Shown one piece after another: positions 1 through 34,538 of a DNA stretch of 44,370 bases. The position numbers were made by a program, and so were the translations under genes. The notes under the pieces were generated by a model, which saw only the letters and a list, made by a program, of their open reading frames with translations, made no database searches and was not told the DNA's origin. Location of the stretch: assembly GCA_963514965.1 (NCBI GenBank), contig CAUPXC010000001.1:1-44370 (forward strand), read 5' to 3'. Within the stretch, counting starts at the first letter, position 1. Each line of letters starts with the position of its first letter. Origin of the DNA: an uncultured Candidatus Saccharibacteria bacterium (GTDB lineage: Bacteria; Patescibacteriota; Saccharimonadia; Saccharimonadales; Saccharimonadaceae).

Positions 1-610
1 AGGCCGGTTCTTTCTCGGCGTTGGCGATGGCGGTGCGGAGGGCAGATAGGTCAGGACGAAGGGCGTCAAGTTTTGCTTGCAGAGCTGCTTTGGCAGCGTT
101 GAGTTCGGCAACAGAAGCACCGGCGTTGGCGGCGACCTGCTCTGCTTGGGTAGCTTGTGCAGCTACGGCGTCCTTGGTTTCTTGGGACATGCCGGCAGTA
201 GTTGCTGGGTCTTTGGCCTTGGTTATCAGGGCGGAGAGAGCGTTGCGAGCAGCGGTGACGTTAGCGGTTACCTGGTTGAGGCGATCCTGGAAAGCTTGCT
301 TCTTAGCTGGGTCTTGGACGGCAGCTACCTTGGCGTTGGCGCTGGTAACATCGTCTGGATCCTGGTTGTGTTCAGCCTGAGCAACTGCTTGTTCAGCGGC
401 TGTCTGGGCGTCTGCTTCTTTCTTCTTGGCGTTAGTTACTGCCGTGTTGAGGTCGTTGGCTGCTTTCTGGATGGCAGTAGCAGCTGGGTTTGGTTGCTTC
501 TCTACTTCTTTGGCTTTGGCGAGAGCTTGCTTGACGGTAGCGTCATTGGTAATGTAGGCCGGTTCTTTCTCGGCGTTGGCGATGGCGGTGCGGAGGGCAG
601 ATAGGTCAGG
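1..610. repeat. Intragenic direct repeat: 1-55 identical to 556-610, implying a 555-bp (185-aa) repeat unit
   Basis: aggccggttctttctcggcgttggcgatggcggtgcggagggcagataggtcagg occurs at 1-55 and 556-610; both copies encode PDLSALRTAIANAEKEPA. Confidence 0.9.
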
Positions 611-3600
611 CTTTGGCAGTGTTGCAGTCACGTGTAGTGTTCCAGAGAAAGCAAACGGCTTACCATTGATAGTTATTTGCTTATTCCAGTTAGCCTGCAG
701 TGCGTGCGGCTGCCCGTCATATATTGGCGCTGCGACTTTTAATTTACCGCTTACTTCATTGACCAAAGTAGCTGTATTTTCAATAGTAACTGGTGCGCCA
801 GAGGCATCCTTTAATGGTGAGTTAAATACCTCAGACTCAGTAGCCATACTACCTTGCTGGTTTTCTAGCTTCAAAGAGGTGAGGCGATTTAAGCCGGCCA
901 AAGGCTGTGCATTCATGACCGTACTATAGTCTAACCGCAGTTCAGTAAGTTGAGTCATTCGTCCAATTGCAGTAATCTCATCCTCGCTCAATTGTCCCCC
1001 AGTCAAGCGCAAAGAGGTCAGAGCTGGAGCACCAACAAGAGATTGAGCATTGACAACTTTAGTCTTTCGACCATAGTCATAGAAAGAAATTTTCTTTAAT
1101 GAGTTCTTACTACCTGCAAATGTTGATAGGTCTAACGTCTGATTGGTACCGCTCATCGAGATTTGCTCGAGCTTGTTCAGAGACGACAAAGGACTATAGT
1201 TCGCAACAACATTTTCCGACAAGTTCACACTACGCAGCTCAGACAAGCCAGCCAGCGGTTGGATATCAGCAACCTTGTTGCCTGACAGCTGTAATGCGCG
1301 CAGTTTAGTTAGGCCAGAGAGCGGCTGTAAATTGGTAATTGCGTGATTGCCAAGTGATAGTTCAGTCGCATTTTTAGCGTACTCCAGACCAGTCAAATCC
1401 TTAATCCTCTGGTCTTCCGTGATATTGCCAGTATTATCGACATACATGCGATCAATGGTTAGCATTTCTTGAGCAGTAATCGCTTGAGTATCGCTGCGGG
1501 CTTTTCCTGATATTTCAGCTAACCTCTTGTTCAACAACTGGCGCAACCTGGCATCAGGGATATTAACACCCTGCGCTGCCGGAGGTTGTGGAGGTGTCGG
1601 AGAATTGGTTGAGTCCATGTAGGCATTTACTAAAGCACCTCGGTTTACTGCCACGCCAGGTTTCACGTACTGACCGCTCGGGTCAATTGCCGATGCAACC
1701 TCAGCTGACAGTGGCTTACCTGAGCTAATCGCTGGACTGCCTGGCTTCAAGTTGTAGTTACTCTTGCGATAGTCAGTGTTCTGTTCAGCTTCTTTGATGA
1801 AGTATGGGTTATTGGCACGTGTACCAAACAGATCAAGAGAATGTGCGTCACGACCATCAATTGACGACCGAACGCGACTGTCCTTGGCGATGTCTTTCAC
1901 GTTGGCAAACAGAATATCAAGACGATTCGGCACATCCGCTAAGTCCCAGGTCATAATCGTGCCTTCATTTTGCAAACTGCTGCGGTAGTAGGCGTTGTAG
2001 TCAAAGCCTTTGAACATGTCATTGGTATAGGTGCCAGGACCAGTATGGTTCGGCCCACCAGTACTTCTGACAGGGTAGGACCAAAGTGGCGCGCCAGTGT
2101 CACCAGAAATGACTGCGCGAGAGGAAATGATGTTATTGTACATCTCCAGGCCAGTCAGATTCCAACTCAAACCTTTACCAGCAGACCATGATTCAAGCGA
2201 TTTACAAATTTGTGGGTTGTGAGCATCTCGCTCATTACAACCGTCCGTACGAGCATCCTCATTTAGCATGATCGGTCGGTTAGTTCGAGAGATGGTGTTG
2301 TTGTACACTTTGGAATTTGAACTACTTGAGACGCTAACACCAGCACCCGAGCCTTCAATGATGTTTGACGCGATGATCGTACCGTCTGAAACCTCATCAA
2401 AGATCGCGGTAGTTGTGTTGATGAAGAAGTTATTGACGATTTTCGCCTTAATACAACCTTCATCGCACCAGACACCTGCTGTACCATTGCGCACATAATA
2501 GTCATTGCCGGTTGAAGCAGGATTCTTTGAGTTATCAACCACATTACCTCGGAACGTAAAGTTCTCAATGTGCGTCACTTTTATCTCAGAAACAGTACAC
2601 CATGCCAAACAGACTGAACCATTGGTCAGATAATTTGCTGCGTTATTCTCTGTAAAGATGTTATTTTCAAATGTTGTATTGTGTGCACGGTTAGCTCCTG
2701 CACCATTACCACCATTTCCGATAAATTTGTTATTAACTATGCGCGCACCTTGTGCATCAGTATTGAAACCGACTGAGGAGCTTTGCGTAAAGATAGAGTC
2801 TTGGACGACTGAGCCACGACCATTTACCACGATCATACTGGTCCCAACCTGATCTTCGGCCAAGTCACGATCCCAAGACCAACTCTGTACTGGTGAGTAC
2901 TGTGCAACATTGATAGCTTTCATCGTGAAATTAGAGCCATCATCAGCCTGACGACCACCAACAGAGAAAGCGCGTGCTCGGTTGGTAATCTCTGTAGTAC
3001 CGCTAGATGGGTCAGAGCCAACATAATATGTCAAATCATCTTCTGTGCCGACGTTAAAGCCTGCGCGATTGTTGGTAGGGTCTTTTAGGGTAGTTGGATT
3101 CTTGTCTTCAACATAGAATTTACCAGGGCCAACCTTGCTTTTTGCATCGACTTGTTCCAGTGGTTGATCGTCGATAAACATCTGCTCTGGGTAAGCAGCC
3201 ATACCTTCTTTGGATGGGTTGGGGTTGACCGTACAAACACGACAGAAATTACGGAATTTACCCGTAGTCTTCCACATGTTGCCTTCTTTAGTCCATCGAT
3301 CTGCCGATACAATATCGCTACCCTTCATCCAGACTTCAGCATGAGGGGCAGCCTGGAAGGTAATATTTTTCTTCGTGACAAAGAAATGAGGCTCTCGGTA
3401 AGCACCGCTCTTGGCTACAACCGTTCCTCCATCAGAAACGGCCTGTAAGCCTCGCCTAAAGGTCGCGAACGGTCGCGCTTCGGTACCATTCCCGGAATTG
3501 TCATTACCATCTGGCGAAATCCATGCCACATTGGTTGTCGGCACTGGATAATTGGTATCCATCGCTTTATATTTTTTGTGGACACTAGCCGCTTGTACCA

Positions 3601-3706
3601 TAAATGGATGTGTCAAAACTAACGCAAACACCATCACCACTGCAGCTGCTGGTATTGCTATCTTGGCGACACGTTGATTCCTTCTTGATATACGAAGACG
3701 TACCAT
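1..3706 (-). CDS. Large secreted/surface protein, 3'-truncated by the window edge (>=1235 aa): signal/TM segment, parallel beta-helix (pectin-lyase-like), internalin-type LRRs, Ala-rich helical repeats
   Basis: Not in the ORF track because no stop falls inside the window. Manual translation from ATG 3706: MVRLRISRRNQRVAKIAIPAAAVVMVFALVL...WISPDGNDNSGNGTEARPFATF (beta-helix cap)...NYNLKPGSPAISSG...VNIPDARLRQLL...IKDLTGLEYAKNATELSLGNHAITNLQPLSGLTKLRALQLSGNKVADIQPLAGL (LRR)...PDLSALRTAIANAEKEPA. Frame is consistent at 3706, 1618 and 4. Confidence 0.9.
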   Translation of the reverse strand, partial: MVRLRISRRNQRVAKIAIPAAAVVMVFALVLTHPFMVQAASVHKKYKAMDTNYPVPTTNVAWISPDGNDNSGNGTEARPFATFRRGLQAVSDGGTVVAKSGAYREPHFFVTKKNITFQAAPHAEVWMKGSDIVSADRWTKEGNMWKTTGKFRNFCRVCTVNPNPSKEGMAAYPEQMFIDDQPLEQVDAKSKVGPGKFYVEDKNPTTLKDPTNNRAGFNVGTEDDLTYYVGSDPSSGTTEITNRARAFSVGGRQADDGSNFTMKAINVAQYSPVQSWSWDRDLAEDQVGTSMIVVNGRGSVVQDSIFTQSSSVGFNTDAQGARIVNNKFIGNGGNGAGANRAHNTTFENNIFTENNAANYLTNGSVCLAWCTVSEIKVTHIENFTFRGNVVDNSKNPASTGNDYYVRNGTAGVWCDEGCIKAKIVNNFFINTTTAIFDEVSDGTIIASNIIEGSGAGVSVSSSSNSKVYNNTISRTNRPIMLNEDARTDGCNERDAHNPQICKSLESWSAGKGLSWNLTGLEMYNNIISSRAVISGDTGAPLWSYPVRSTGGPNHTGPGTYTNDMFKGFDYNAYYRSSLQNEGTIMTWDLADVPNRLDILFANVKDIAKDSRVRSSIDGRDAHSLDLFGTRANNPYFIKEAEQNTDYRKSNYNLKPGSPAISSGKPLSAEVASAIDPSGQYVKPGVAVNRGALVNAYMDSTNSPTPPQPPAAQGVNIPDARLRQLLNKRLAEISGKARSDTQAITAQEMLTIDRMYVDNTGNITEDQRIKDLTGLEYAKNATELSLGNHAITNLQPLSGLTKLRALQLSGNKVADIQPLAGLSELRSVNLSENVVANYSPLSSLNKLEQISMSGTNQTLDLSTFAGSKNSLKKISFYDYGRKTKVVNAQSLVGAPALTSLRLTGGQLSEDEITAIGRMTQLTELRLDYSTVMNAQPLAGLNRLTSLKLENQQGSMATESEVFNSPLKDASGAPVTIENTATLVNEVSGKLKVAAPIYDGQPHALQANWNKQITINGKPFAFSGTLHVTATLPKPDLSALRTAIANAEKEPAYITNDATVKQALAKAKEVEKQPNPAATAIQKAANDLNTAVTNAKKKEADAQTAAEQAVAQAEHNQDPDDVTSANAKVAAVQDPAKKQAFQDRLNQVTANVTAARNALSALITKAKDPATTAGMSQETKDAVAAQATQAEQVAANAGASVAELNAAKAALQAKLDALRPDLSALRTAIANAEKEPA

Positions 3707-3756
3707 CCCTATTTTTCCCCTCTCCTCAGTTGTGTGTATTAAAACTACCTGCCACC

Positions 3757-3786
3757 AGTGTAGCATGAGCGATTTCGTCCTGTCAA
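3757..3786 (-). promoter_or_regulatory. Sigma70 promoter for the large surface protein
   Basis: Minus strand TTGACA (3786-3781), 18 nt spacer, extended -10 TGcTACACT (hexamer 3762-3757). Confidence 0.65.
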
Positions 3787-4523: not shown

Positions 4524-7340
4524 CTATTTCAACAGCGGCTTGAGGTACTTACCGGTAAATGACTCTGTGTTCTTGGTAATGTCTTCTGGCGTTCCGCTAG
4601 CAACCACCGTACCGCCACCCATACCACCTTCTGGACCCATGTCGATGATCCAGTCTGCTGACTTGATAACATCCAAATTATGCTCAATCACGATCATACT
4701 GTTTCCACCTTCAACGAGTTTATGCAAAATCCCCAACAGCCGCTTAACATCAGCCGAATGCAGCCCGGTGGTTGGTTCATCCAAAATATACATAGTTTTG
4801 CCTGTTGATCGTTTTGATAATTCAGTCGCTAATTTGATGCGCTGCGCTTCCCCGCCAGAGAAGGTAGTGGCTGGCTGACCCAGACGAATATAACCCAAGC
4901 CAACTTCCACCAACGTCTCAAGTTTTCGATGAATAGATGGAATACTGTCAAAGAATTCGGCCGCTTGCTCTACTGTCATTTCCAACACATCAGAAATAGT
5001 GCGTCCTTTGTAGGTAATTTCCAACGCTTCACGGTTGTACCGCTTACCTTTACACTCGTCACACATCACATACACATCTGGCAAAAAGTGCATTTCAATT
5101 TTTATCACACCATCACCCTGACAATTCTCACATCGGCCACCCTTGACATTAAAACTAAATCGGCCTGCCTTGTAGCCACGAACGTTAGCTTCTGGCGTGG
5201 CAGCAAATAATTCACGAATTGGCGTAAAAATACCCGTGTAGGTGGCTGGGTTGGAACGCGGTGTGCGACCAATTGGCGACTGGTCGATGACGATGGCTTT
5301 GTCTAGCAGTTTAATGCCGTCAATGCGGTCGTGCTTGCCTGGCACCGCTTGAGACCGGTTGAGGCGAGCTGCCAGCTCCCTCGCCACAATGTCATTAACC
5401 AAGGTTGACTTACCACTACCAGACACACCAGACACCACCGTCATTAATCCCAAAGGAAACGCCACGTCAATATTTTTCAAATTATTTTCCTGAGCACCAC
5501 GCACTATGAGCTGCTGATCTTGATTTGGCTTCCTGCGCTTTTTTGGTACTGCAATTTTCTCTACACCACTCAAGTACCGACCGGTGATGCTGTCTGGATT
5601 TTTCGCTACTTCCTCAGGCGCTCCCATGGCGACGATTTGCCCACCCTTTGAGCCAGCCCCTGGCCCCATGTCGACCAAAAAGTCACTTTGACGAATGGTA
5701 TCTTCATCATGCTCCACTACCAGCACCGTATTACCAAGATCACGCAAGCGCTTCAGAGTATCAATCAATCTATCATTATCTCGCTGGTGCAACCCAATGG
5801 ATGGCTCGTCCAGAACATACAGCACCCCCTGCAAACCGGAACCAATTTGCGTAGCCAGCCGAATGCGCTGAGCTTCTCCACCGCTCAAGGTGTTAGCTGC
5901 TCGGCCCAGCTCCAGATAGTTCAAACCAACATTACTCATGAAGCCCAACCGCGCGTTGATCTCCTTTAATATCAGCCGCGCGATCATCGTTTCCTGTTCC
6001 GTCAACTTCAGCTTGCGAGTAAACAAATCCAACGCATCGTCAACGCCCAAATCACAAATATCAACAATATTCAGCCCATGAACCGTCACCGCCAAGACCA
6101 CTGGCTTGAGACGAGCGCCTTTACAAAGATAACAGGCTCGTTCGCGCATAAATCGTTCAATGTCTTTACGCATAAATTCGCTGTCAGTCTCACGATGTCG
6201 ACGCTCCAGATTCGGAATAACTCCCTCGTAAGTCGTATCATAATGCCGGCCATTACCAAGCTCAATGCGATATTTCTGCGCCCCCGTGCCGTACAAAATT
6301 TTCTGCTTAGCCTCATTTGACAGTTTCTTAACAGGAGTTCGCATACTAAAATCATGAGCTTCTGCAACAGCTATGATTTTTTTCATATAGAAATTGTCGA
6401 CATTGACGCGGTTGTACGGTCTGATGGCGCCTTCGGCGATGGTCAAATTGTCATTAAACACCAACTCTGGGTCAATTTCCATGCGACTACCCAAACCAGT
6501 GCAGCTTGGACAGGCTCCCTGTGGTGCATTAAAACTAAACAACCGCGGTTCCAGCTCTGGAATATCTTCTTCAGGGTGATCAACACACGCATATCTCTGA
6601 GAAAACGTCCGCACCTGATCATCATCAGCGTCCAATACTTCGACAATTCCCTGGCCCAATTCTAACGCTTGCTCAACACTCTGAGACAAGCGACCAGCCA
6701 ATTCACTGGTTAATGCCAAACGGTCAACTACCAGCTCAATTGAGTGCTTATAGCTCTTTTGCAATTCCGGAAACTCATCCAGGGCGTACACCACACCATC
6801 AACCCTGACGCGAGCATAACCCAATCGACGGTATTGCTCAGGAATGTGCGCAAATTCACCTTTTTTATTTTTGACGATTGGCGCCAATAGTAAAATCCGG
6901 CGTCCGTCGTACTGCTTGATGATTTCTTGAATAATGGTTTCAGTGGTACGTCGCGAGACTTCTTTGCCACAAATTGGGCAGTGTGGCACACCAATGCGCG
7001 CAAACAACAATCGCAAATAGTCGTAAATCTCAGTCACCGTCGCTACCGTTGAGCGTGGATTGCGGCTGGTTGATTTTTGGTCAATCGAAATAGCTGGACT
7101 CAAGCCATCGATGCTATCAACATCAGGCTTATCCATCGTTCCCAAAAACTGCCGAGCATACGAGTTCAAGCTCTCCATATAACGGCGCTGACCCTCAGCA
7201 TAAATCGTATCAAACGCCAGACTTGACTTACCCGAACCACTCAGACCAGTGATAACCACAAACTTATCACGCGGCAATTCCACGCTGACATTTTTCAGAT
7301 TGTGCTCGCGAGCACCTTTAACTCGAATAACCTCCGGCAT
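4524..7340 (-). CDS. uvrA: Excinuclease ABC subunit A; start corrected to [17 protein letters not shown]
   Basis: Two ABC cassettes ([28 protein letters not shown]), zinc-finger Cys pairs; TATAAT 9 nt upstream of ATG 7340. Confidence 0.97.
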
Positions 7341-7462
7341 AGCCGCTCTATTATACCGGTTTTTTATCTTTTTTTCCAGACATTGCCTAAATATTGGGTT
7401 ATATATCACCATATATTGCTTATGATTGCAAGTCAAGCTTTTATCTGTTACAGTTACAATAT

Positions 7463-7846
7463 ATGCGAAGGTTGAGTGTTTACTTACTGCTAATTATTGG
7501 TGCGGTTTTCATCACACCGATACTTTTTGACCAGCTTTGTATGTTCGTGTTTCTTGGCAAGCTTCCGTTTTTGAACGTTAATTTGTCAGCTACTTCCATG
7601 ATCGTTTTCTGGCTCGCCCTTGTGCCAATCTGCCGCATTTTGCGAGCAGCCATCCCAGTATCATTTGACGATATCAAAGAACTCATCCAATACATTTCCC
7701 GAAAACGCCTCAACAACAGCATGTTGTACCAGAGCCATGATCTAACCTTGCTATTTGTCTATCTGGCGCATGAAGCCGAGAAAGCCGAAATCAGCGAGCC
7801 AAACGCCCGCGTAAGCGCCCAAAAGCTTGCTCCATCTTTGACCTAA
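7463..7846 (+). CDS. Hypothetical membrane protein, ~127 aa with two hydrophobic segments
   Basis: Fills the gap between uvrA and sbcB. Likely start [13 protein letters not shown] at 7463; stop overlaps the convergent sbcB stop. Confidence 0.6.
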
Positions 7847-9255
7847 ACGATAGGCAGCACCGCCTCCGCCCACAACTGTAGTTCCTGTAAAATGAACTGC
7901 TGTTCGTCAGTTGCTGTCGGCGCTAGACGCTGCAGAGACGCCATAAATTGTGGTAGTTGCGCCTGCAGGCGCTGCGCCCGCCATGCTTCCCACTGCGCCA
8001 AATCATCTTCACTGAGTGACCGCGGAAAGTTACGGGCTTTGTAGTGCAGCAGTAGTGGCGCCAACCGCTCGTCCTGAAACTCTGGATGAAAATCAGCCAG
8101 CTCACGCTCATCAGCATTGCGCACCGCTTCTACCCGCAAGCGGTCACGGTCGTTCAAAAAGCCATCATATAACTGTGCTTCTGGGTCAGGCAATTTCTTA
8201 AATGCTGGCTTATTTTCAAAAATACCACGCAATTTTTCAGCAAAATCTGGATATTTCAACAACATATCTTGATGCTTCTGTACCGTCGCCAAATCAAGCG
8301 AAATTTTCTGCCAGCCATCACCCTGTTCCAGCACACCCAGCGGTGCCACTGCTGGACAACGATTGTACTGTAATTCTTTGACTGGTAGTTTAACGAAATC
8401 CTCAGCTTGCCGCTCCTCCCAGGAAGCAAAGATTTTCTTGGCCAACTCCTCTTGGCTCAGCCCAACAAACGGCGTCGGATCATAACGTAGGTCATAGACA
8501 ACCACACCGCCATTTCGACTGGTCGTCAGTGGAAAGGCCACTGTAGTTTTAGCAAACTCTTTGTCGTAACGCCCGCTGGCATAGACAAACGGTTTTTTAT
8601 CGTCCATATTAACCAGCTGCTGGACTACTTTTTTGTCGCGCATCTTCAGCAAATAATCATACAGCTGCGGCTGTTTTTGCTTGATCAATTTCGTCACGGC
8701 AATCAGCGCCGTCACATCCGCTAAAGCATCGTGAGCATTTTCGTGCGCAATACCGTTGGCGCTGGTGATGAGCTCCAGGCGGTTGCTTGGCTCACCTTTA
8801 GTATCAAGTGGCCACTTGATCCCCTCTGGCCTGAGTGCCCTGGTCAGTCGCACTACATCGAGCATATCCCAACGCGATCGACCATCTCTCCAGCTCCATT
8901 CGTACGGGTCATGAAAATTACGCCACAATAAATGGCGAATGAACTCATCGTCAAATCGAATATTATTAAAGCCAACCGCAATAGTATCCGGCGTGAAAAT
9001 CTCCTCGCTGAGCATCCGCGCAAACTGCGCCTCAGTGTAGCCTTCCTCGACCGTTTTTTGCGGCGTGATACCAGTCACCATCAGCGCGTCAGGGCTCGGC
9101 AAAGTATCATCGTTCAGCGTCACCAGCAGATTATACGGCTCGCCAATCGGTTCGAGATTCATGTCTGTCCGCTGCCCCGCAAACTGCATGATGCGGTCTT
9201 GTCGCGAGTTTAGTCCGCTAGTTTCGAGGTCGTAGAAGAAAAATGTTTGCGCCAT
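7843..9255 (-). CDS. sbcB: Exodeoxyribonuclease I
   Basis: FFFYDLETSG, GFNNIRFDDE, AHDALADV DEDDh motifs; EAQLYDGF and YKARNFP C-terminal ExoI motifs. Confidence 0.95.
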   Translation of the reverse strand: MAQTFFFYDLETSGLNSRQDRIMQFAGQRTDMNLEPIGEPYNLLVTLNDDTLPSPDALMVTGITPQKTVEEGYTEAQFARMLSEEIFTPDTIAVGFNNIRFDDEFIRHLLWRNFHDPYEWSWRDGRSRWDMLDVVRLTRALRPEGIKWPLDTKGEPSNRLELITSANGIAHENAHDALADVTALIAVTKLIKQKQPQLYDYLLKMRDKKVVQQLVNMDDKKPFVYASGRYDKEFAKTTVAFPLTTSRNGGVVVYDLRYDPTPFVGLSQEELAKKIFASWEERQAEDFVKLPVKELQYNRCPAVAPLGVLEQGDGWQKISLDLATVQKHQDMLLKYPDFAEKLRGIFENKPAFKKLPDPEAQLYDGFLNDRDRLRVEAVRNADERELADFHPEFQDERLAPLLLHYKARNFPRSLSEDDLAQWEAWRAQRLQAQLPQFMASLQRLAPTATDEQQFILQELQLWAEAVLPIV

Positions 9256-9278
9256 ACCTATAGTATAGCAGAAAGGGT

Positions 9279-12200
9279 TTACCCACCTATCGTCATCACC
9301 TTAACTCCAGGTATTTCCTCGTAATATTTTCTAGCATTGTGTAGTATTTTTTCGAATGCCTTGTCTTCAGTTGATCGATGTTTGTATATAAGAAGTATTC
9401 CATTTTTGGCATTAAACTGCAACATGTATTTTTTCATCGAATTAAATGACTTAGTTTTCTTTAAACTCCTTTGCCCGTACAATTCTGAGTGTGTAGACAA
9501 CTTTAACTCAATAATAACTGGGCCAAAAAATCCATGATACACCTGAAAGTCAGTTCGCGTTCCATCCAGCTCTTGAGCCTCACGCTCAAATCTAGTATGT
9601 ATATCCGACTTATTGTATTTTTCCAATAGTAAATTTTCAAATCGTATAGCAATGTTTCTTTGTGCGTCCACTTCACTATTGCATAACAGAGAAGATCCCT
9701 CCTGCTTCACCCACCTATCCAGTGATCTTATAATCTCTTCAGTCTCAAACAAAAGCTCACCCTCAGAGCAAATTGCTCTATCATCAATTGAGTTTAATCG
9801 ATTAACTAGCTGTATCGCCGCCGCGTATGGCTGCTCGTCGCCCAACTGTTCCAAAAATCTTGCCTTAATATCCTCAAGTAGGCGTCGAAAGCCAGCAGTC
9901 GCATACTCTGGATACTTCTCTACCTCTTCTTCTATCAGCCGCACTATACCTATATCTTTTGTATAACTAAGGTTCTTAAAATAGCTTTCGCACACCCTCC
10001 AAAGATAAAAGGCATATCGGCTCCATCCTTCGCCTCTCCCATTTATCTTGAACGACTCTCTCAGTAAGTCAATAAATAGACTAATCCATTTACTGTTCGT
10101 TAATCCTGATAGAGGCCTGGCGATGACCTTGTCATCCAGCTCTGCCTCATCATCACCAATAGCATAAAACCCTCCAGAGGGACGTTCTGGGCAATTAAAT
10201 GCTTTTTTCTTTAGTAGTTGAAATCTTCGTACAACAGCATCCTCATCTTCATAATTAGTAATTAGCATATCATCAACTACCTGAAGGATTAGTCTACTTG
10301 AGTCATCATGATTTTTTTCATAATAACGTAAAACTTCTAGCAAGAATTCTTTGTCTGGCATAATGACTTCAGCAACACGCAAGGCTTTCACTTTGTAATG
10401 AACCATTATGTCACTTTTGAGTATAAAATTTCGCAATATCGGTACGGCTTCTTTTACTGAATATTTATCAGCAAAATCGATGAAGTTTTCAGGCAAATGC
10501 TGCGCTTTATCAGCATCTACATCTTTGTAAGATTCTACAATATTGGCTCTGTCAGTATCATCAAGCTTTATATTATCAAAAATATCATGCCGCTGTTCTT
10601 CATACATATAAGGGAATAGACTAAGAATCTTTTGCTTATAAACCCCTAAATCCGTCCTTCTCGTAAGATAACCAAATAAAACTGCCGTGACAGCCTGAGG
10701 TACACATCTAGAAATAGTATACTCTCCGCCGCCCCCAGGATACTTCTTCGTATAAGCAAATTGTATCCGTGACTCATCAAAGCCATCAAGTATATGCTTT
10801 TTTAGCCCGTCCCATATACACTCGATTTGCTCTTCAGTATAATTCAACTCCTCTCGACGACTGGCGTCTTTTAAATAATCTATGATTATTTTCGCAGCCT
10901 CATATAAAGACCCCAAACTGCCACCTTTTAAATCATTGCAAATCTGCCTATAGATCGTATTAAATTTAACCGTTGGCTGGTTTAATTTATCCTGCCTCTG
11001 CATTCGCCTCATTTCATTGTCGAGCTGTTTAAACTCGTTTGGTAGTAGCGTGCGGGCACGCTTCTCAATGGCCACCTTATCAGGATTATCACTAATAGCT
11101 CTCGTTAATAAATGCCACAATCGCCATCTTTGATTATCCTCCGCCATCAGGCTGATTATCTTATCAACCGCATCAATGGTCATATTTGGCGCAAGAAATG
11201 AACGCATGCGATATAACAAAGTATCACCATCTTTACCGCCATGAAGTGAGCGTTCAAGTATTTCATCGAAATATGATGAGTCTTTTTGAAAAATTAAATT
11301 AATAATCTCTTCTACAAATTTGGAACGTTCGGCATAATAACCATGTTCGACTTTAACGGACAAATATATAAATTGTTTCAGCATAGACAACCAGTCATCA
11401 TGCCACAACTTATCAACACTCACCAGAAACTTACTCTTACCGTTAAATACCAACTTATCGTGCTTGATTACGGATAGCACAAGATTTTCATCGATTGCTA
11501 GCTTTTGCAAAAAGTAACTGATAGACTCTGGCTTATCTAATTCCTCAATATAAAATCGCGAGCCGATGACTTCGCGTTTCATGCCTTCAATGTATATATC
11601 TATGGCTGCTTCGCTGTTACTATCTATTTTGTAAGCAAAAGATTGTATGGCGTCAAATATAGCAGTATGGTTTCGGTGTGCGGATGACAGTAACCTATTT
11701 AGCACTGACTCGTCATTAGTTGCGATCAGGGAATGTATGGCATTATACTGTAAATCATGATTATTGTTTTTAACTCTCCTACAAGCTATCGTTAATAATC
11801 TTTCAACAAGCCGCCGATTATCTTCTTTATTATATCTATTAAGAAGCAACGCTTCGCCGCAAAATATAATGGCATTTAACAACATGGCATGGTTAGCTTT
11901 TGTGTTACGCTTTGAGATAACAAACTGTAATACTGACTCTATTTGATCTGAGCTAGCATAGCGAGCTAAGTTAAATAAAACCTCACGATCAATAAATGTA
12001 GACTGCCTCTTATGTTGACTCCATATGCGGTCAAATATGTATTCCTTATCAGAACTAGTCATACATACCGCGTTTACTCCTGTGACTAATAATTCCGTAT
12101 CATCGTTTAAAGTTACACCTTCTGGCTGCAGATCAATAATAAGACGTGCCATCTCTGGCATCTCATCGACTAGATATGACAGCGTATTACGCCAAGACGG

Positions 12201-13262
12201 TATAAGTCGACGAGTTTGACTGTCAAAGGCTAGTGTGAACGCTTTTCGGATTGGATTCGCCATCCGAGATATATATTTTGCCGCAAGATATTCTTGAATT
12301 TCTGCATTGGTAAAATATATCCTTCCTTCTACATTCTTAGTGAGTAAAGAGTGCTCATATATATCTTCTATGTCTGTATTTCCTAGTAGTAATTTTACAT
12401 CCGATGAAGCCCTGTCAATAAAAGTAATGAAATCATCAGTCGATATTTCAGTAACTTGAGCAATCTTCATAGTAAGTGCAATATGCTCCAAAAAACGCTG
12501 CTTTAGTTCTGCCAATTGACGTCTTGACTTCTCGTCCTCACCAAGAAGCTGTTTACTTACAAGTGAAGCAAACAACATCGGCCTATTAAGATCCTCCGCA
12601 TTAAAATTCTCATCCTCTAATTTCTTGGCAATAATTTCAAGATAGCGAGGGTTTTGTAGAATTGAACTGTCACCTGTGCTTCCACGTGGCAAGCTGTTAA
12701 ATAATTTCCTGATAGAACCTTCTTCAACACCAATCTGCTCTAAAAATTTTTTTGCTTCATGAGATTCAAGCGGGTTAATGAACAGATAGTGTGCATCTGG
12801 AATTCCTCTAAATATATTTTGGTATTTACTAAAATAATGTATACGACTTGATATTACATACCTACATTTTGGATGTCCATTGATATGATAGACCAGCCCC
12901 CTGATTGTCTCTATAATATCCCGATTTGGCGACTCGTCCAGACCGTCTAGCAATATAATATCAGTATCATCGTGTATACTGTTTAGTCGAAGCCACCTAT
13001 CTATATCTTGCCCTGGCAATTTAGTTTTAAAATCTATCCTACGTGCATTTTCATATAGACGTTCGAGTTCTTTAATGAGGCGCGTCTTACCCTGACCCGG
13101 TTCCGCTACAATAAAAGTCACTCTGTTTTTCAAAATATCTGATAGGTCATCAATATGAGTATCGTCGTCATCATAGTCAAAAAAGTAACTACCTCTGGAT
13201 TTGAGTTCCAGGAGTGACTCGTAGGAACTTGCGATATAGAGTCTTGGTTGAATATATTTCAT
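9279..13262 (-). CDS. NACHT/STAND-family NTPase with long helical middle region and C-terminal PD-(D/E)xK nuclease-like domain; candidate defence protein
   Basis: Walker A AEPGQGKT, Walker B IILLDGLDE, sensor ISSR, QNPRYL, winged-helix FTNAEIQEYLAA; C-terminal SEVDAQ...ERE...RTDF...IIELK. Visibly AT-rich versus flanks. Confidence 0.8.
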   Translation of the reverse strand: MKYIQPRLYIASSYESLLELKSRGSYFFDYDDDDTHIDDLSDILKNRVTFIVAEPGQGKTRLIKELERLYENARRIDFKTKLPGQDIDRWLRLNSIHDDTDIILLDGLDESPNRDIIETIRGLVYHINGHPKCRYVISSRIHYFSKYQNIFRGIPDAHYLFINPLESHEAKKFLEQIGVEEGSIRKLFNSLPRGSTGDSSILQNPRYLEIIAKKLEDENFNAEDLNRPMLFASLVSKQLLGEDEKSRRQLAELKQRFLEHIALTMKIAQVTEISTDDFITFIDRASSDVKLLLGNTDIEDIYEHSLLTKNVEGRIYFTNAEIQEYLAAKYISRMANPIRKAFTLAFDSQTRRLIPSWRNTLSYLVDEMPEMARLIIDLQPEGVTLNDDTELLVTGVNAVCMTSSDKEYIFDRIWSQHKRQSTFIDREVLFNLARYASSDQIESVLQFVISKRNTKANHAMLLNAIIFCGEALLLNRYNKEDNRRLVERLLTIACRRVKNNNHDLQYNAIHSLIATNDESVLNRLLSSAHRNHTAIFDAIQSFAYKIDSNSEAAIDIYIEGMKREVIGSRFYIEELDKPESISYFLQKLAIDENLVLSVIKHDKLVFNGKSKFLVSVDKLWHDDWLSMLKQFIYLSVKVEHGYYAERSKFVEEIINLIFQKDSSYFDEILERSLHGGKDGDTLLYRMRSFLAPNMTIDAVDKIISLMAEDNQRWRLWHLLTRAISDNPDKVAIEKRARTLLPNEFKQLDNEMRRMQRQDKLNQPTVKFNTIYRQICNDLKGGSLGSLYEAAKIIIDYLKDASRREELNYTEEQIECIWDGLKKHILDGFDESRIQFAYTKKYPGGGGEYTISRCVPQAVTAVLFGYLTRRTDLGVYKQKILSLFPYMYEEQRHDIFDNIKLDDTDRANIVESYKDVDADKAQHLPENFIDFADKYSVKEAVPILRNFILKSDIMVHYKVKALRVAEVIMPDKEFLLEVLRYYEKNHDDSSRLILQVVDDMLITNYEDEDAVVRRFQLLKKKAFNCPERPSGGFYAIGDDEAELDDKVIARPLSGLTNSKWISLFIDLLRESFKINGRGEGWSRYAFYLWRVCESYFKNLSYTKDIGIVRLIEEEVEKYPEYATAGFRRLLEDIKARFLEQLGDEQPYAAAIQLVNRLNSIDDRAICSEGELLFETEEIIRSLDRWVKQEGSSLLCNSEVDAQRNIAIRFENLLLEKYNKSDIHTRFEREAQELDGTRTDFQVYHGFFGPVIIELKLSTHSELYGQRSLKKTKSFNSMKKYMLQFNAKNGILLIYKHRSTEDKAFEKILHNARKYYEEIPGVKVMTIGG

Positions 13263-13346
13263 CTTTATATATAATTATAGCCTAATTAATCCTAAGATGT
13301 AGATCAAAATAATTTATATCAAAATTTGTCAACACTGCACTTTAAT

Positions 13347-14729
<1,383 letters not shown>

Positions 14730-15845
14730 TTAATGAATATAATTATAAGCGCCTGGGTTGGTCAACTCACGGTGAGTGATGACATTATAGCCAGCAAAGT
14801 TCATGTCACTCACAAACACCCGACCATTCTCAACCCTGTCAACGATCCCAACGTGTCCGTAGTAGCCACCTGAGCTCTGGAAAATAGCACCCGGAGCTGG
14901 TGTCTTATTGACCGTAAAGCCAGCAGCACGTGCACTCGCAGCCCAAGTATTGGCGTTACCCCAGAAGCTACCGATTGGACGACCAAGTGCCAAGCGTCGC
15001 TCATATGAGTACCACGTACAGTTACCTGGTGCGTATCGGTTACCAACAGATGCAGCAACATTGCCGTAGCTCACGCCACTATAACCAGAATGACTATTAC
15101 TGCTTCGTCCACCGCGCGGTGCGACATACCCTGGGCGCTCATTTTCTGGCAGTTCACCACCAGGCAAGACGATGCGCGTATTGACCGTTGGCTGTGCCAC
15201 GCGATCTAGTGAGTTGTACAATAAGACTCGCTCGGCATCAACTTTATACTTTGAAGCGATAGCTGCGATGGTATCGCCTTCCTTGACAGTGTAAACCACA
15301 CCATCGACTTGTGGCACTAACAGCGTCCTACCTGGTTCAACAGCGTCAGAGGTCATATTGTTCGCCCAACGCAGTGTCTGGGCTGAGATTTTGAATTTAG
15401 CAGCAATTTTAGCTAAATCATCACCCGGCTTAGTAACATATTCGGTAATACCACGCTGAGATGATGTTTCCGGCTGGATAAGCTGCGGCTTAGAGATAAC
15501 CTCTGCGTCAGTTTGAGCTAACTGCTTCTGGATTTGCAAAGAAGTAGTTGCTTCGCGCAAGTCACCAGCGGATGGTAAATCAGTAGCCTCTGCTAAACTA
15601 GCGACGGCGTCAGCCACCTCTAATTGATCGACTGACATTTTTTCCTTACTTGTGGTTGTAGACTTTGGATTTGGGTTAGCAACCTGAGACTCTTGGGCGG
15701 AAACCTCCACTCCAGTAACCCCGGTCCCCTGATGATAATTATTAATAGTCAAAAATGAAACAATAAGTGCAAATAGGGCTACATAGATAGAAGCTGACCG
15801 TACTCGCGCTAGACGACTCTGTCGAGTCTTTGATGTGTTACGAAT
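14730..15845 (-). CDS. LysM (x2) + CHAP peptidoglycan hydrolase; probable ATT start at 15845 (ORF track starts at TTG 15752)
   Basis: YVTKPGDDLAKIAAKF and YTVKEGDTIAAIASKY LysM repeats; GNCTWY...WGNA...YGHVGIV...SDMN CHAP motifs. Upstream in-frame extension adds a basic region plus hydrophobic helix behind an AGGAGA SD. Confidence 0.88.
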   Translation of the reverse strand: MRNTSKTRQSRLARVRSASIYVALFALIVSFLTINNYHQGTGVTGVEVSAQESQVANPNPKSTTTSKEKMSVDQLEVADAVASLAEATDLPSAGDLREATTSLQIQKQLAQTDAEVISKPQLIQPETSSQRGITEYVTKPGDDLAKIAAKFKISAQTLRWANNMTSDAVEPGRTLLVPQVDGVVYTVKEGDTIAAIASKYKVDAERVLLYNSLDRVAQPTVNTRIVLPGGELPENERPGYVAPRGGRSSNSHSGYSGVSYGNVAASVGNRYAPGNCTWYSYERRLALGRPIGSFWGNANTWAASARAAGFTVNKTPAPGAIFQSSGGYYGHVGIVDRVENGRVFVSDMNFAGYNVITHRELTNPGAYNYIH

Positions 15846-16105: not shown

Positions 16106-17170
16106 TCAAGATTGCTGACACTTCTGATGACAATGCGCCTTGGTATTAGCAGTGTGTTCGGCATCTGTTTTAGCAAAATAGGTTACATTATCATCGCCAC
16201 TGAGGAAAAAGAGGTAATCTGTCTGTGCCGGGTCAGCAACCGCATTCAGTGCACTTAGCCCGGGAGTAGCTATCGGTCCCGGCGGCAACCCTTTGTGCAC
16301 GCGAGTATTGTATGGGGAGTCAAGCTGCGTATCACGAGTGACACCCATCTTGTCAGCAGCATACTGATAGGTCACATCCGACCCTAAGTTCATGCCAGCT
16401 TTCATCCTGTTATAAAATACGCTAGCGATCTTTCGCTGATCTTCACAGACTTCAGTACCTACACCGCAGCCGATTGACTCTTTCTGAACGATGGAAGCGA
16501 GCGTTATACCCTGATAGAGCGTCAATCCGCGTTTTTTGAACTTTTCTTCCAAATTATTTTTTCTGGCTACTTGATCAAACTCTGCTAATGCACGCTGAAT
16601 TGCTGATTTGGCGGTTGCATCACCGCTCATAAAATACGTATCACCATAGACAAAACCTTCAAGATCAGCCCCTGCTGGGCGTGCTTTGAAAACATAGCTA
16701 TCGTAGTCTGCTTTAAAGGCAGTTTCAATATCGGCGTCGTTATACCCAGCTTTTTTGAGAGCGCTTTCGACTGAGCGATAATCTTTTCCGCGTAACGTAC
16801 CGTCAGGGTAGAAGCGAACAGCCATCTCATCAGATTGACCGTCGATCAGATGTTTGATGATCTCAGGTGTTGACTGCGATGGCTTAACAGCATACACGCC
16901 GACGTTAAAACGAGCATCAATTCGCTTCAATTTGATATAGCCCAAAAATGCGTACCGACTGCGGATAAGTTTCTTTTCTTCCAGAGCAGACGCTACTTGA
17001 GGAGCTGTCATGCCGCTGGTGATATTGACCCGCGTTACTGTCTGGTCGCCTGTGTTTACCGCCGAAAGATTGTGTATATACCAACCAGCTCCAGCTGCAG
17101 CAGATAAACCGAGCACTGCCACCAAGCCAGCTACCACAATCATCCATTTTCTCGACTTACGAATCTGCAT
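16106..17170 (-). CDS. mltG: Endolytic transglycosylase MltG (YceG); start corrected to MQIRKS
   Basis: N-terminal TM, LEGFVYGDTY, LASIVQKE, SVFYNR, SPYNT...GLPPGPIATPG; GGAGG SD before ATG 17170. Confidence 0.93.
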   Translation of the reverse strand: MQIRKSRKWMIVVAGLVAVLGLSAAAGAGWYIHNLSAVNTGDQTVTRVNITSGMTAPQVASALEEKKLIRSRYAFLGYIKLKRIDARFNVGVYAVKPSQSTPEIIKHLIDGQSDEMAVRFYPDGTLRGKDYRSVESALKKAGYNDADIETAFKADYDSYVFKARPAGADLEGFVYGDTYFMSGDATAKSAIQRALAEFDQVARKNNLEEKFKKRGLTLYQGITLASIVQKESIGCGVGTEVCEDQRKIASVFYNRMKAGMNLGSDVTYQYAADKMGVTRDTQLDSPYNTRVHKGLPPGPIATPGLSALNAVADPAQTDYLFFLSGDDNVTYFAKTDAEHTANTKAHCHQKCQQS

Positions 17171-17567
17171 AGTGTACCTCCAAATAATCCTGCAAAATGA
17201 TGCTGGCAGCCTCAGCGTCAATCTCACCTTTATCTTTAACGCGACCTAACCGACGTTCAGCTTCAACGCTACTGAGCGACTCATCTTGATAAACCAGCTC
17301 AGCATCAAGCTCAATCTCAGAAAAACCATCAACAAACTGCTCTACAAACGCTGTCTGTTTGGTTGGCTCTCCTGACTGATTGCGCGGATAACCGACAACG
17401 ATAATATCAATATCATGTCGTAACACCGTTTCCGCCAGTTTGGTAAAAATCTCATCGTTATTCTCCAGCCAACCAAACGGCACAGCGATTCTGACTGAGG
17501 TATCAGCCATAGCCAAACCAATTCGTCGTTCACCGACGTCCAGTGCCAGCAAATTCTTACCGGCCAT
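17157..17567 (-). CDS. ruvX: YqgF/RuvX family RNase H-like nuclease
   Basis: LALDVGERRIGLA, VVGYP, DESLSS, IDAEAASIILQ. Confidence 0.93.
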   Translation of the reverse strand: MAGKNLLALDVGERRIGLAMADTSVRIAVPFGWLENNDEIFTKLAETVLRHDIDIIVVGYPRNQSGEPTKQTAFVEQFVDGFSEIELDAELVYQDESLSSVEAERRLGRVKDKGEIDAEAASIILQDYLEVHYADS

Positions 17568-19182
17568 TATCCAACTTAAATTCTATACTAATATGTTTGT
17601 CATTGTTTGGCACGGTGCGCACCCAAAACGGTGAGAATTTCGTGTCAACATCTTGCACGCCTTCGATTGATTCGAGGCTCGACTGAACATCACCATAGTT
17701 TCGGCCCTTGACCTGTTCTTTGACTTTATGCTCATCAATTTCTGGGCCAATCTTCGCATTTGCGGTTAATCGAACCTGCACGGCATTGTTGCGCTCACTG
17801 TATTGCGCAAATTTTACCTCATTTGACCCATCATTATAGATCTTTTGGTTTTTCTTGCTGCCAATTTCTTTCTTGAGCGTGTCCTCTAAAAATTGTTTCA
17901 TATCAGAGCGATCAATACCCTGCATACTGGCTGTCACTGTTGTCTTCAACTGAACGGTACCGCTGGCTTCATGGTCAACCGCCACTGAAGGAGTAGGGTT
18001 TGAGCGAGCCTCTTGGTAGCTTTCATTGATGACGATGCTTGAAGATGGGAATAGTGCTTTGACTGCTGACTGTAGCGACGGATCTTTTTGCGCATCAAGT
18101 TTGGCTTTGGCTTTGGCGACATCAGCGGCTGACACCACCGTGACTTCACGACTTGAGCCGCCGTTCATAGAAGAGCCTACTGCTGAAAAGCCACTGACGT
18201 TTGACGAGTAACTGCGTGAAGATAGGTTATATTCACTGCCGACTTGAGTTGCCTGCACTTGCACAGTAGCCGAAGACTGGATGACGCCGCCAGGACCAAT
18301 TGACGTGCCAGACAAGGTAGCTGGCTCAGTACTAACAAAGGTATAATCACCAGAAGAGAATGACGTTCCGGCCGGTATGGTAATGGTCAGGCTCGACACT
18401 GATGTTCGAACTAGCTTCATGCTACCGCTGGCTTTTTCACCAACCTTTTTCTTGCCCGTAGGAGTGAAATCAACAGAGATCTCTTTCTTTTGTTCTTGAC
18501 GCAATGACTTGATGGTGTTGTTAGCAGCATCAACTTTGCCATCTTGCTTTAATGTGACTGATTTATCAACGGTAGATGTAGTCGTTTTGGCTGTGATCAC
18601 CACTGTAGCATGTGGTGCAAACCAAATCGCCCAAACCATGAACAGAACAAATAGAACGATGCCGCCGCCAATCAAGACTAATTTTTTGCGGAAAACATTA
18701 AAATCTGGGACTTTTGGCTTACCTTTGCCTGCTGGCTTAGCAGGTTTTGCTGGCTTTGTTGGCTTTTCATCCTCGGCTATAGCTGCATCGATAGCATCAT
18801 CAGCCTTATTTCGTGCTTTTGGCGTCGCCTTATCAGCCAATTCACCGACCGGTATCTCACTACCGTCAATCACATCATCGCCATCATCAACATCGATGGC
18901 TGGAATTTCCGCAATTTCTGGACGAGACTGCAATGTCTTGGCCACTGGGATGCGAGCTGCGGCTGCCAATCCACTGAGCGCCTGGTCACTGGTGATCAAC
19001 ACGATTCGCTTCTCGGCATTTTCCGCCGCACGATTTAACAATCTCATATTGACCGCGCTCTGCAATATACCAACCCGTTTAGGAGGCACCAATGCAACGA
19101 TGCGCGCCTTTGAATCTTTTATCTTGCTGACGATGTTGGTGATATCGTCTTCAACATCGATATAGATAACATCTTTGTTCAT
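17557..19182 (-). CDS. Bitopic membrane protein: N-terminal globular domain, acidic/Lys-Pro linker, one TM, large extracellular beta-rich region (baseplate-J-like segment)
   Basis: 541 aa; TM LVLIGGGIVLFVLFMVWAIWF; TIPAGTSF...VQVQATQVGSEYNL...GGS resembles baseplate J/gp47-annotated segments; directly abuts the FtsA-like gene. Confidence 0.75.
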   Translation of the reverse strand: MNKDVIYIDVEDDITNIVSKIKDSKARIVALVPPKRVGILQSAVNMRLLNRAAENAEKRIVLITSDQALSGLAAAARIPVAKTLQSRPEIAEIPAIDVDDGDDVIDGSEIPVGELADKATPKARNKADDAIDAAIAEDEKPTKPAKPAKPAGKGKPKVPDFNVFRKKLVLIGGGIVLFVLFMVWAIWFAPHATVVITAKTTTSTVDKSVTLKQDGKVDAANNTIKSLRQEQKKEISVDFTPTGKKKVGEKASGSMKLVRTSVSSLTITIPAGTSFSSGDYTFVSTEPATLSGTSIGPGGVIQSSATVQVQATQVGSEYNLSSRSYSSNVSGFSAVGSSMNGGSSREVTVVSAADVAKAKAKLDAQKDPSLQSAVKALFPSSSIVINESYQEARSNPTPSVAVDHEASGTVQLKTTVTASMQGIDRSDMKQFLEDTLKKEIGSKKNQKIYNDGSNEVKFAQYSERNNAVQVRLTANAKIGPEIDEHKVKEQVKGRNYGDVQSSLESIEGVQDVDTKFSPFWVRTVPNNDKHISIEFKLDNGR

Positions 19183-20445: not shown

Positions 20446-20491
20446 ACCCTAAATTATATACTGCTGATGCTTTTTGAGCAAACGTTATGAA

Positions 20492-34534: not shown

Positions 34535-34538
34535 TGTA

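Follow-up and report, generated by a model that had tools for sequence, protein, structure and literature searches.

The window analysed here is a stretch of 44,370 nt from an uncultured Candidatus Saccharibacteria bacterium (assembly GCA_963514965.1, contig CAUPXC010000001.1, positions 1 to 44,370). Between obg and sbcB it carries a single gene whose product, designated P0001, is probably a one-protein immune sensor of the bacterial NACHT type, resembling the NLRs of animals (receptors that combine a nucleotide-binding domain with leucine-rich repeats), with a PD-(D/E)xK DNase as C-terminal effector and an abortive-infection mode of action. The elements computed here are a three-part architecture, conserved NTPase and nuclease residues, purifying selection on the gene and its accessory, foreign nature, and defence is considered its most likely function. 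An earlier note on this DNA had proposed an inverted NTPase-sensor-nuclease architecture as a candidate for an undescribed defence system; the domains, their layout and defence as the most likely role are retained, whereas the architecture is not an undescribed one (see below). P0001 is an uncharacterised member of a DUF8371-type family of known kind and does not represent a new category.

Architecture and conserved residues of P0001

The open reading frame (ORF) of P0001 has an ATG start and encodes 1327 amino acids (aa) plus a stop, without internal stop. The features of the gene, with the evidence for each in brackets, are the following.

9279..13262, minus strand: whole gene P0001, with NACHT NTPase, helical/HEAT sensor region and predicted PD-(D/E)xK nuclease (full-length homologues down to 26% identity)
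12258..13145, minus strand: NACHT-type STAND module with nucleotide-binding domain (NBD), helical domain and winged helix, aa ~40-335 (AlphaFold model, Foldseek, NCBIfam EruA match)
13083..13106, minus strand: Walker A, AEPGQGKT, aa 53-60 (E54, P55, G56, G58 and K59 invariant in 19/19)
12933..12959, minus strand: Walker B and extra acidic pair, IILLDGLDE, aa 102-110 (D106, D109 and E110 invariant)
12279..12314, minus strand: winged-helix motif FTNAEIQEYLAA, aa 317-328, with Asn319 at the NLR His position (invariance in alignment)
9711..12257, minus strand: helical/HEAT-like region, aa ~336-1184, presumed sensor (HEAT-type profile matches, helices in models)
9282..9710, minus strand: predicted C-terminal PD-(D/E)xK (restriction-endonuclease-fold) domain, aa 1185-1327 (model and VIA-align)
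9501..9584, minus strand: predicted catalytic core, R1227-E1228 ... D1238 ... E1252-L-K1254 (invariant in 19/19)

A protein-database search with P0001 returned 25 proteins at E<=1e-3, 21 of which span 97-100% of the query; identities reach down to 26% and one match is named Candidatus Saccharimonas. Residue invariance was scored in a full-length alignment of 19 sequences reaching down to the same identity. Besides the Walker A and Walker B residues given above, all 19 sequences share R140 of the SSR motif, P205-R206-Y207 (in NPRYLE), the winged-helix residues F317, N319, E321, Q323, E324, Y325, L326 and A327, and a C-terminal set composed of E1197, Q1201, R1227, E1228, Q1230, R1236, D1238, E1252, K1254, S1272, S1275 and Y1279. 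This conservation is well beyond chance. All motifs quoted in the earlier note (AEPGQGKT, LLDGLDE, SSR, NP, the F..AEIQEYLAA type and E.D.Q...RE...RTDF...IELK) were found in the translation, and its description of a 1327-aa protein with an NTPase beginning ~45 aa from the N-terminus agrees with the ORF.

At the N-terminus, aa 1-470 were modelled with AlphaFold on the basis of the family alignment. The model has a predicted local distance difference test (pLDDT) of 80.8 and a predicted template-modelling score (pTM) of 0.70, and displays the NBD-helical domain-winged helix arrangement of NLR NACHT modules. When this model was compared with the PDB using Foldseek, 312 matches were obtained at E<=1e-3; the top 48 listed rows all correspond to animal NLRs (NLRP3 with E 3.8e-11, NLRP14, NLRC4, NLRP7, NOD2 and NAIP), with Avs4 (PDB 8dgf) at rank 49 (E 3.5e-8), in line with the NACHT-type STAND NTPase that had been predicted. 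P0001 has the GxxxxGK[ST] Walker A of NACHT-clade STAND proteins as well as their Walker B with D-G-h-D-E, the latter being a NACHT signature reportedly proposed by Koonin and Aravind in 2000. No match of P0001 to Pfam NACHT (PF05729, gathering score 26.7 bits) was found at E<=1 and its other Pfam matches are all sub-threshold (NPHP3_N, 19.3 bits; AAA_22, 18.4 bits; nSTAND3, 15.6 bits). Among its relatives, the protein of locus L078 (Mucilaginibacter) passes the NACHT threshold with 33.1 bits and P0021 and P0024 fall just under it with 26.2 bits. The first beta-strand of the P-loop domain lies at aa 48-53 of the model, with one strand and one helix over aa 1-24 and one strand and two short helices over aa 1-45. 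As the P-loop strand begins at aa 48, there is no room for an N-terminal effector, as had been noticed from the sequence.

P0001 lacks the conserved winged-helix His that contacts the nucleotide in NLRs (NLRC4 H443 equivalent) and has Asn319 instead, the presumed equivalence of the two positions being drawn from the motif and from Kibby et al. Among the 94 relatives of at least 1200 aa, 75 have N at this position, 6 have D and 3 have H, and hhalign places N319 opposite the His in the motif WAHQTYGEFLAA of P0173, an EruA-like protein (see below). Mutation of the His hyperactivates human and bacterial NLRs; for the bacterial proteins, namely bNACHT25 and bNACHT16, this is reported in the accessible part of Kibby et al. 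(bioRxiv 10.1101/2022.07.19.500537).

The C-terminus of P0001 is predicted to form a conserved PD-(D/E)xK nuclease domain. The model of aa 1030-1327 (pLDDT 79.2) ends with a helix, two strands, a helix, a strand, a helix and a strand (H168-187, E210-214, E217-226, H242-253, E258-264, H271-285 and E291-296 in model residues), which corresponds to the alpha-beta-beta-beta-alpha-beta core of this fold. The predicted catalytic residues E1228, D1238 and E1252-x-K1254 are invariant and placed accordingly, D1238 directly before strand 210-214 and both E1252 and K1254 on the next strand, 217-226. Comparison with 48,161 chains using VIA-align gave seven proteins of the restriction-endonuclease (REase) fold, all spanning model residues 135-298 with middling Z values: BamHI (Z 7.4 over 126 aa, root-mean-square deviation 3.7), BglII (7.4), VC1899 (7.3), BstYI (7.2), Can2 (7.0), the small subunit of R.BspD6I (6.8) and OkrAI (6.7). 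The PD-(D/E)xK pattern read in the earlier note is therefore matched by a restriction-endonuclease fold in the model together with the invariant E/D/ExK set, and a D..(E/D)xK pattern occurs within the last 220 aa of 93 of the 94 relatives. Prediction of a two-copy complex of the nuclease domain (model residues 130-298) scored 0.00 against a mark of 0.42, which is evidence neither way.

Between these two ends, the modelled parts of the middle region (aa 205-470 and 1037-1216) are nearly all helix. In a comparison of the family profile with PDB sequences, the only matches were to designed repeat proteins of the alphaRep/HEAT type and fell at profile positions ~497-605 (lowest E 2.2e-11), and HEAT_2 is found sub-threshold in homologues at aa ~507-579. 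The ~850 aa of helical sequence that had been proposed are thus borne out for the modelled parts and for positions ~497-605, aa ~600-1030 lying outside both models.

Relation to EruA, HyoA, bNACHT and Avs proteins

In NCBIfam release 20.0, P0001 matches the profile NF058535 (EruA) with E 2.2e-15, aa 31-540 aligning with positions 9-511 of 1318. EruA and HyoA (NF058534, 1430 positions) are both equivalog models named 'NACHT domain-containing antiphage protein', and their existence, with weak matches at both ends of the family, argues against the undescribed architecture claimed earlier. The relatives were covered by 72 protein scans (10 + 34 + 28, two proteins being scanned twice), one of the 34 proteins, L057:5606-9937, being a neighbouring PglX outside the family. 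None of the 72 scans reached the EruA or HyoA thresholds. Many relatives match the N-terminal ~20-300 profile positions of EruA and/or HyoA, some of them the N-terminal NACHT positions ~10-160 of HyoA. C-terminal matches were obtained to HyoA profile positions ~1240-1385 (best 50.8 bits, P0055) and to EruA positions ~1140-1242 (P0152, best with 51.9 bits, L041 and P0145).

A true EruA above the cut-off was found neither in the genome of the window, nor in five genomes holding relatives, nor in 401 genomes of the class of genome G041. The draw of 401 genomes did provide the EruA-like P0173 (1425 aa), which reaches 262.7 bits over profile positions 23-1290 and through which, along with the NCBIfam profile, the comparison with EruA was made in place of a true EruA sequence. 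P0173 ends in RE..ETDI..VIIEVK, which hhalign aligned with RE..RTDF..VIIELK of the P0001 family, though not significantly by that alignment alone; this C-terminus likewise counts against a novel layout. From the N- and C-terminal profile matches and from P0173, it follows that EruA, HyoA and the P0001 family share a NACHT module, a HEAT-like solenoid and a PD-(D/E)xK domain. Profile comparison thus points to distant homology of the three, at the NACHT end at least; P0001 is an equivalog of neither EruA nor HyoA. The resemblance to EruA covers a similar length, the NACHT module at the extreme N-terminus, the HEAT-like region behind it and a C-terminal D..ExK domain, whereas the middle ~600 aa are unalignable and the winged-helix His of P0173 is replaced by Asn. 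As regards HyoA, relatives found with the C-terminal domain of P0001 match both ends of its profile, all far under the cut-off of 1200 bits.

Full-text literature searches retrieved no phage-related paper under the names EruA or HyoA, whose source may lie beyond the literature searched; elsewhere, 'EruA' designates a SlyA-type regulator of E. coli, and 'HyoA' stands for a mouse hypoxia/ovalbumin (OVA) model. No paper was found either by a literature search joining NACHT, anti-phage and 'C-terminal nuclease'.

The bNACHT proteins (e.g. bNACHT25, with its Mrr-like REase effector) resemble P0001 in joining a NACHT switch, a repeat sensor and an REase-fold DNase in one polypeptide. They differ in that the effector is N-terminal in the tested bNACHT proteins and in that the His linked to hyperactivation is Asn in P0001. 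In the accessible part of Kibby et al. (bioRxiv 10.1101/2022.07.19.500537), some bNACHT effectors are placed at the extreme C-terminus after the repeats and REase is among the effectors, so that C-terminal effectors, too, were already in print. The accessible main text of a 2026 STAND survey (PMC13581612) describes the N-terminal-effector layout as typical and does not contain the names Eru or Hyo.

Avs proteins (e.g. Avs4, PDB 8dgf) share with P0001 a STAND NTPase, a large sensor and a nuclease effector, and are the source of the model of abortive infection activated by oligomerisation that is borrowed below. Their effectors are N-terminal and their NTPase lies outside the NACHT clade, while P0001 has no N-terminal effector and the NACHT modules of animal NLRs outscore Avs4 in Foldseek. 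PADLOC 2.0.0, which presumably holds bNACHT models, gave no match to P0001 at E<=1, Avs included, as the earlier note had anticipated for a new system. At E<=0.01 it gave none for P0013 or P0173 either, and generic ATPase or helix-turn-helix (HTH) models only for other relatives.

The family was further explored using back-translated patterns on one genome per species (185,579 species), with 248 stretches matched. Relatives are encoded in 117 of these, and 79 loci were retained; at the matched position, ca. 65 of the 79 have an intact ORF with a length of 1245-1494 aa. Hosts comprise Saccharibacteria and many other Patescibacteria lineages, Nitrospirae, Gammaproteobacteria, Planctomycetales, Ignavibacteria, Bacteroidota (Mucilaginibacter, Pedobacter, Pontibacter, Marinifilum, Bacteroides), Negativicutes, Acidobacteriota and others, and the family is therefore widespread yet patchy over many phyla. 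When the last 188 aa were compared with 1.84 billion representatives, 211 proteins were found at E<=1e-3; among the long proteins listed, the domain always occupies the extreme C-terminus of a protein of ~1280-1490 aa, and the short matches look like fragments. The proteins in the nearest ESM-Atlas clusters have 1338-1470 aa and go by the name 'NACHT domain-containing protein' or 'hypothetical'. The link to PF28130 (DUF8371), a domain of unknown function, comes through the annotation of relatives, being found on 4 of the 25 homologues (P0010, P0012, P0013 and P0024) and on 15-47% of members in these nearest clusters. Among 72,556 plasmid records, relatives occur only in two ~133.5-kb Arcobacter plasmids (H1, CP134847.1, 107006-110889; H2, CP129951.1) with 24-25% identity and annotated as hypothetical, and tblastn of 50,697 phage records revealed no relative.

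Two variations on the architecture were observed in the family. P0152, P0052, P0034 and P0066 (~1400-1430 aa) display an extra N-terminal HTH of the XRE or MerR/excisionase type before the NACHT module, which may serve autoregulation or DNA tethering. In a 1451-aa Patescibacteria protein (L036, 9974-14329, plus strand), a HAD-IIIA phosphatase-like match below the cut-off (E 1.3e-6) lies beyond the nuclease, at aa 1335-1397.

The obg-sbcB insertion and the neighbourhoods of relatives

The location of the gene was compared with that of its close homologues and with genomes of the same genus, and two features define the inserted DNA.

9271..13336, no strand: low-GC insertion, approximate extent ~4.07 kb (both window junctions aligned with four empty sites)
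13274..13303, minus strand: promoter-like site TCTACA-18-TATAAT, located within the insertion and 12 nt upstream from the ATG (a match to the consensus and no more; the region has 24 sites of this type vs 15.1 expected)

The start codon of sbcB is at 9253-9255 and the stop of obg at 13347-13349. The window departs from the empty-site sequence 15 nt upstream of the sbcB start and ~10 nt beyond the obg stop, and it is from these two points of divergence that the ~4.07 kb are derived. The insert consists of the gene and 84 bp of AT-rich upstream DNA with the promoter-like site, nothing more, and neither integrase nor border repeat was seen at its borders in the junction alignment and the sequence. 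GC content of the gene is 38.0% (34.3% at third codon positions, GC3) vs 48.4% for the rest of the window, seven neighbouring genes having 47-53% (GC3 43-58%).

The protein was found in 2 of the 24 further genomes compared from its own genus and in none of the 16 that represent other genera of the order. In all four same-genus genomes without the gene that were examined (G003, G005, G006 and G011), the sbcB-obg gap is 44-50 bp; G006 has the closest flanks (94%) yet lacks the gene. The obg-sbcB site is occupied in all six loci having both flanks and a copy 86-95% identical (L002, L003, L004, L006, L007 and L008), as well as in G022, and in L005 obg lies upstream of the gene before the contig ends. 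In L007 and L008 (8608-9913 vs 14008-15411), SbcB is 94-95% identical to that of the window and Obg 68%, with the gene between them at 86-89%. Such mosaic flanks would be expected from exchange through homologous recombination or from repeated loss, and suggest recombination at this site. In some Saccharibacteria, a conserved intergenic site between obg and sbcB thus holds the gene as an accessory cassette with a foreign composition.

Intact copies with 86-95% identity are found in six other Saccharibacteria species, which agrees with the CPR (Candidate Phyla Radiation) host proposed earlier, and no copy has a stop. The Nei-Gojobori ratio of non-synonymous to synonymous substitutions (dN/dS) is 0.21-0.29 over 11 in-register pairs, with 0.11-0.22 for the NACHT module and 0.25-0.52 for the middle region; 10 of the 21 pairs (dN ~0.56) were left out, a compensating pair of indels putting them out of codon register. 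The gene is functional and maintained under purifying selection. In a search of sequencing runs, no RNA run with this DNA was listed, and the best DNA run shared 0.17 of the sampled words.

The neighbourhoods of distant relatives were examined in 35 loci, using script-called ORFs, three genes on each side and PADLOC at E<=1e-5. Matches were obtained for 28 of 105 upstream and 15 of 103 downstream flanking genes, and for 5 of 20 genes in the housekeeping control from the window. The control matches correspond to UvrA (4524-7436) and a 774-aa ATPase (40934-43258), both matching mad3, the former with 353 bits, to SbcB (7843-9255) matching RTasSbcB, to a cysteine desulfurase (24548-25705) matching DndA/SspA and to a UvrD-type helicase (32429-34585) matching GajB with 393 bits. 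A single PADLOC match is therefore a weak indication that a defence island is present. What carries weight is that in 6 of the 35 loci a known system is represented by a pair of adjacent components within three genes:

L078: GajA and GajB, 724 bits each
L059: DrmA and DrmB, plus TmtA and PDC-S26
L057: PglX and AbiLi, PglX being also over the NCBIfam BREX-1 cut-off (1337 bits)
L040: AbiEi and AbiEii
L048: SIR2 and HerA, plus PDC-S45
L061: HEC-01A and HEC-01B

Other flank matches comprise full-length PDC-S36 in L066, full-length GajB in L041, Cas1 in L045 and a Dsr2-like protein in L070, and type II methyltransferases adjoin the relative in five Patescibacteria loci (L021, L024, L033, L038 and L050). 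Some relatives hence lie next to Gabija, DISARM, BREX, AbiE or SIR2-HerA, and the paired components fit a defence role for the family, short of statistical proof. In L070 (Sphingobacteriaceae), the relative is flanked by a TnpB/Cas12f-like ORF (6113-7207, minus strand, 174 bits) and lies beside a 1304-aa protein with a Dsr2/ThsA-type SIR2 match (16679-20593, plus strand).

Several other ORFs in or near the region were recorded in passing. A second variable spot exists between sbcB and uvrA, where L003 (15485-17170, plus strand, 561 aa) and L004 (15423-16766, plus strand, 447 aa) encode BNR/Sortilin-type beta-propellers that are absent from the window, which has there only a 150-aa ORF without family on the other strand (7394-7846, plus strand). 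At the edge of the window, an open-ended ORF (2-3766, minus strand) encodes a protein of at least 1255 aa with a right-handed beta-helix (PF13229, NosD) and leucine-rich repeats (LRR_4, 1.5e-12; LRR_8), probably a large epibiont surface protein. Finally, a 541-aa ORF (17557-19182, minus strand) located between ruvX and an FtsA/PilM-like gene is odd in this housekeeping row; its sole match is a borderline one to Baseplate_J (E 8e-5, 22.5 bits vs a cut-off of 21.1).

Proposed function and alternatives

By analogy with bNACHT and Avs proteins, the nucleotide-bound NACHT module would hold P0001 monomeric and its nuclease inactive in the resting state. Binding of a phage-derived protein, or of an infection-induced change, by the HEAT-like solenoid would then lead the NACHT module to exchange nucleotide and to oligomerise, which would gather the C-terminal nuclease domains into active units. 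Cleavage of phage DNA, host DNA or both by these units would end the infection, probably by sacrificing the cell.

A number of points weigh against this interpretation. The trigger, the oligomerisation, the nuclease activity and abortive infection are all carried over from bNACHT and Avs biology. P0001 reaches 55.9 bits against EruA, for which the cut-off is 1000, and has no match to HyoA (cut-off 1200 bits) at E<=1. The hhalign alignment of the family with P0173 covers the first ~550 residues only (probability 95.6%, E 1.2e-8), and alignment of C-terminus with C-terminus yields E 0.051 and a probability of 1%. As the paper behind the names EruA and HyoA was not found, 'antiphage' is a designation taken from NCBIfam and nowhere else. 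VIA-align Z values of ~7 fall in the range that the tool calls common (Z 7-8), so that what argues for a nuclease is that the fold, the placement of the strands and the invariant E/D/ExK residues all agree. Foldseek comparison of the C-terminal model with the PDB gave nothing at E<=1e-3, the best rows including BstEII (1.2e-2), Ecl18kI, MUS81, EcoO109I and a Cas4. The raw PADLOC rate in the flanks of relatives (43/208) is no higher than in the control (5/20), so that these counts give no statistical support for island enrichment. The copy in the window has only housekeeping neighbours (uvrA, 4524-7436; sbcB, encoding exonuclease I, 7843-9255; obg, 13347-14666) and further genes in the window encode or correspond to a LysM-CHAP protein, mltG/yceG, ruvX, an FtsA-like protein, alaS, rpsP and mnmA, which speaks against a defence-island location of this copy.

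Part of the same data could be read as an NTP-dependent restriction-like enzyme that itself senses modified, foreign or damaged DNA through its C-terminal REase-fold domain and/or the solenoid, the NTPase licensing cleavage, with neither phage-protein trigger nor suicide. The nuclease fold is indeed nearest to the type II restriction enzymes BamHI, BglII, BstYI and OkrAI, type II methyltransferases adjoin five Patescibacteria relatives, and P0152, P0052, P0034 and P0066 have an N-terminal HTH DNA-binding domain. However, STAND/NACHT NTPases are generally oligomerisation switches and not translocases, ~850 aa of repeat-type sensor are typical of NLR and Avs proteins that sense proteins, no linked methyltransferase occurs in the window, and dN/dS is higher in the middle than in the enzymatic ends, as for a sensor tracking its ligand. 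This enzyme-like function is regarded as unlikely.

The location of the gene between sbcB and obg, near uvrA, would also suit a non-immune STAND protein, either a regulator or a housekeeping factor tied to the DNA-repair genes uvrA, sbcB and ruvX, and many STAND clades lie outside defence, 198 of 589 being defence-associated in the accessible part of the STAND survey (PMC13581612). Such a role is quite improbable, given that sbcB and obg are directly adjacent in same-genus genomes without the gene, that the gene has a foreign composition and was found in no more than 2 of the 24 further genomes of the genus, and that the neighbours of relatives from other phyla are unrelated and include several complete defence systems. 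In particular, membership in a repair operon is rejected on account of the empty obg-sbcB sites in the four examined genomes lacking the gene. The precise single-gene insertion, shared at one intergenic site by at least seven Saccharibacteria species, with no integrase or repeats seen at its borders and with the mosaic flanks of L007 and L008 (Obg 68% vs SbcB 94-95%), recalls a selfish or addiction cassette whose nuclease serves the upkeep or spread of the insertion, for instance by cutting empty sites. This last explanation is very hard to credit, as a 1327-aa protein with an NLR-type sensor far exceeds the needs of homing, relatives in other phyla occupy unrelated sites and the nearest named relatives are labelled antiphage.

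Within the preferred reading of P0001 as an NLR-like immune sensor with a C-terminal nuclease, a bolder proposal is that the DUF8371 family forms a mechanistically distinct NLR-like branch, in which the nuclease stands behind the solenoid, Asn takes the place of the autoinhibitory His and members, as a compact defence of one gene, are exchanged among ultra-small CPR genomes at a fixed obg-sbcB hotspot by homologous recombination. This proposal is put forward tentatively and is, at present, rather doubtful. If it were true, the family-wide Asn would imply a different way of holding the off-state. The family is a natural test of two aspects of the NLR mechanism, namely the activation of a C-terminal effector by an N-terminal NACHT switch and the role of an Asn at the position of the His linked to hyperactivation.

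P0001 is notable mainly because a CPR genome of 0.7 Mb carries it as a cassette of one gene. In Saccharibacteria and other CPR bacteria, genomes measure ~0.7 Mb and recognised defence systems are few. That purifying selection maintains a single gene of 4 kb, ca. 0.6% of this genome, suggests that phages are a relevant pressure for CPR bacteria.

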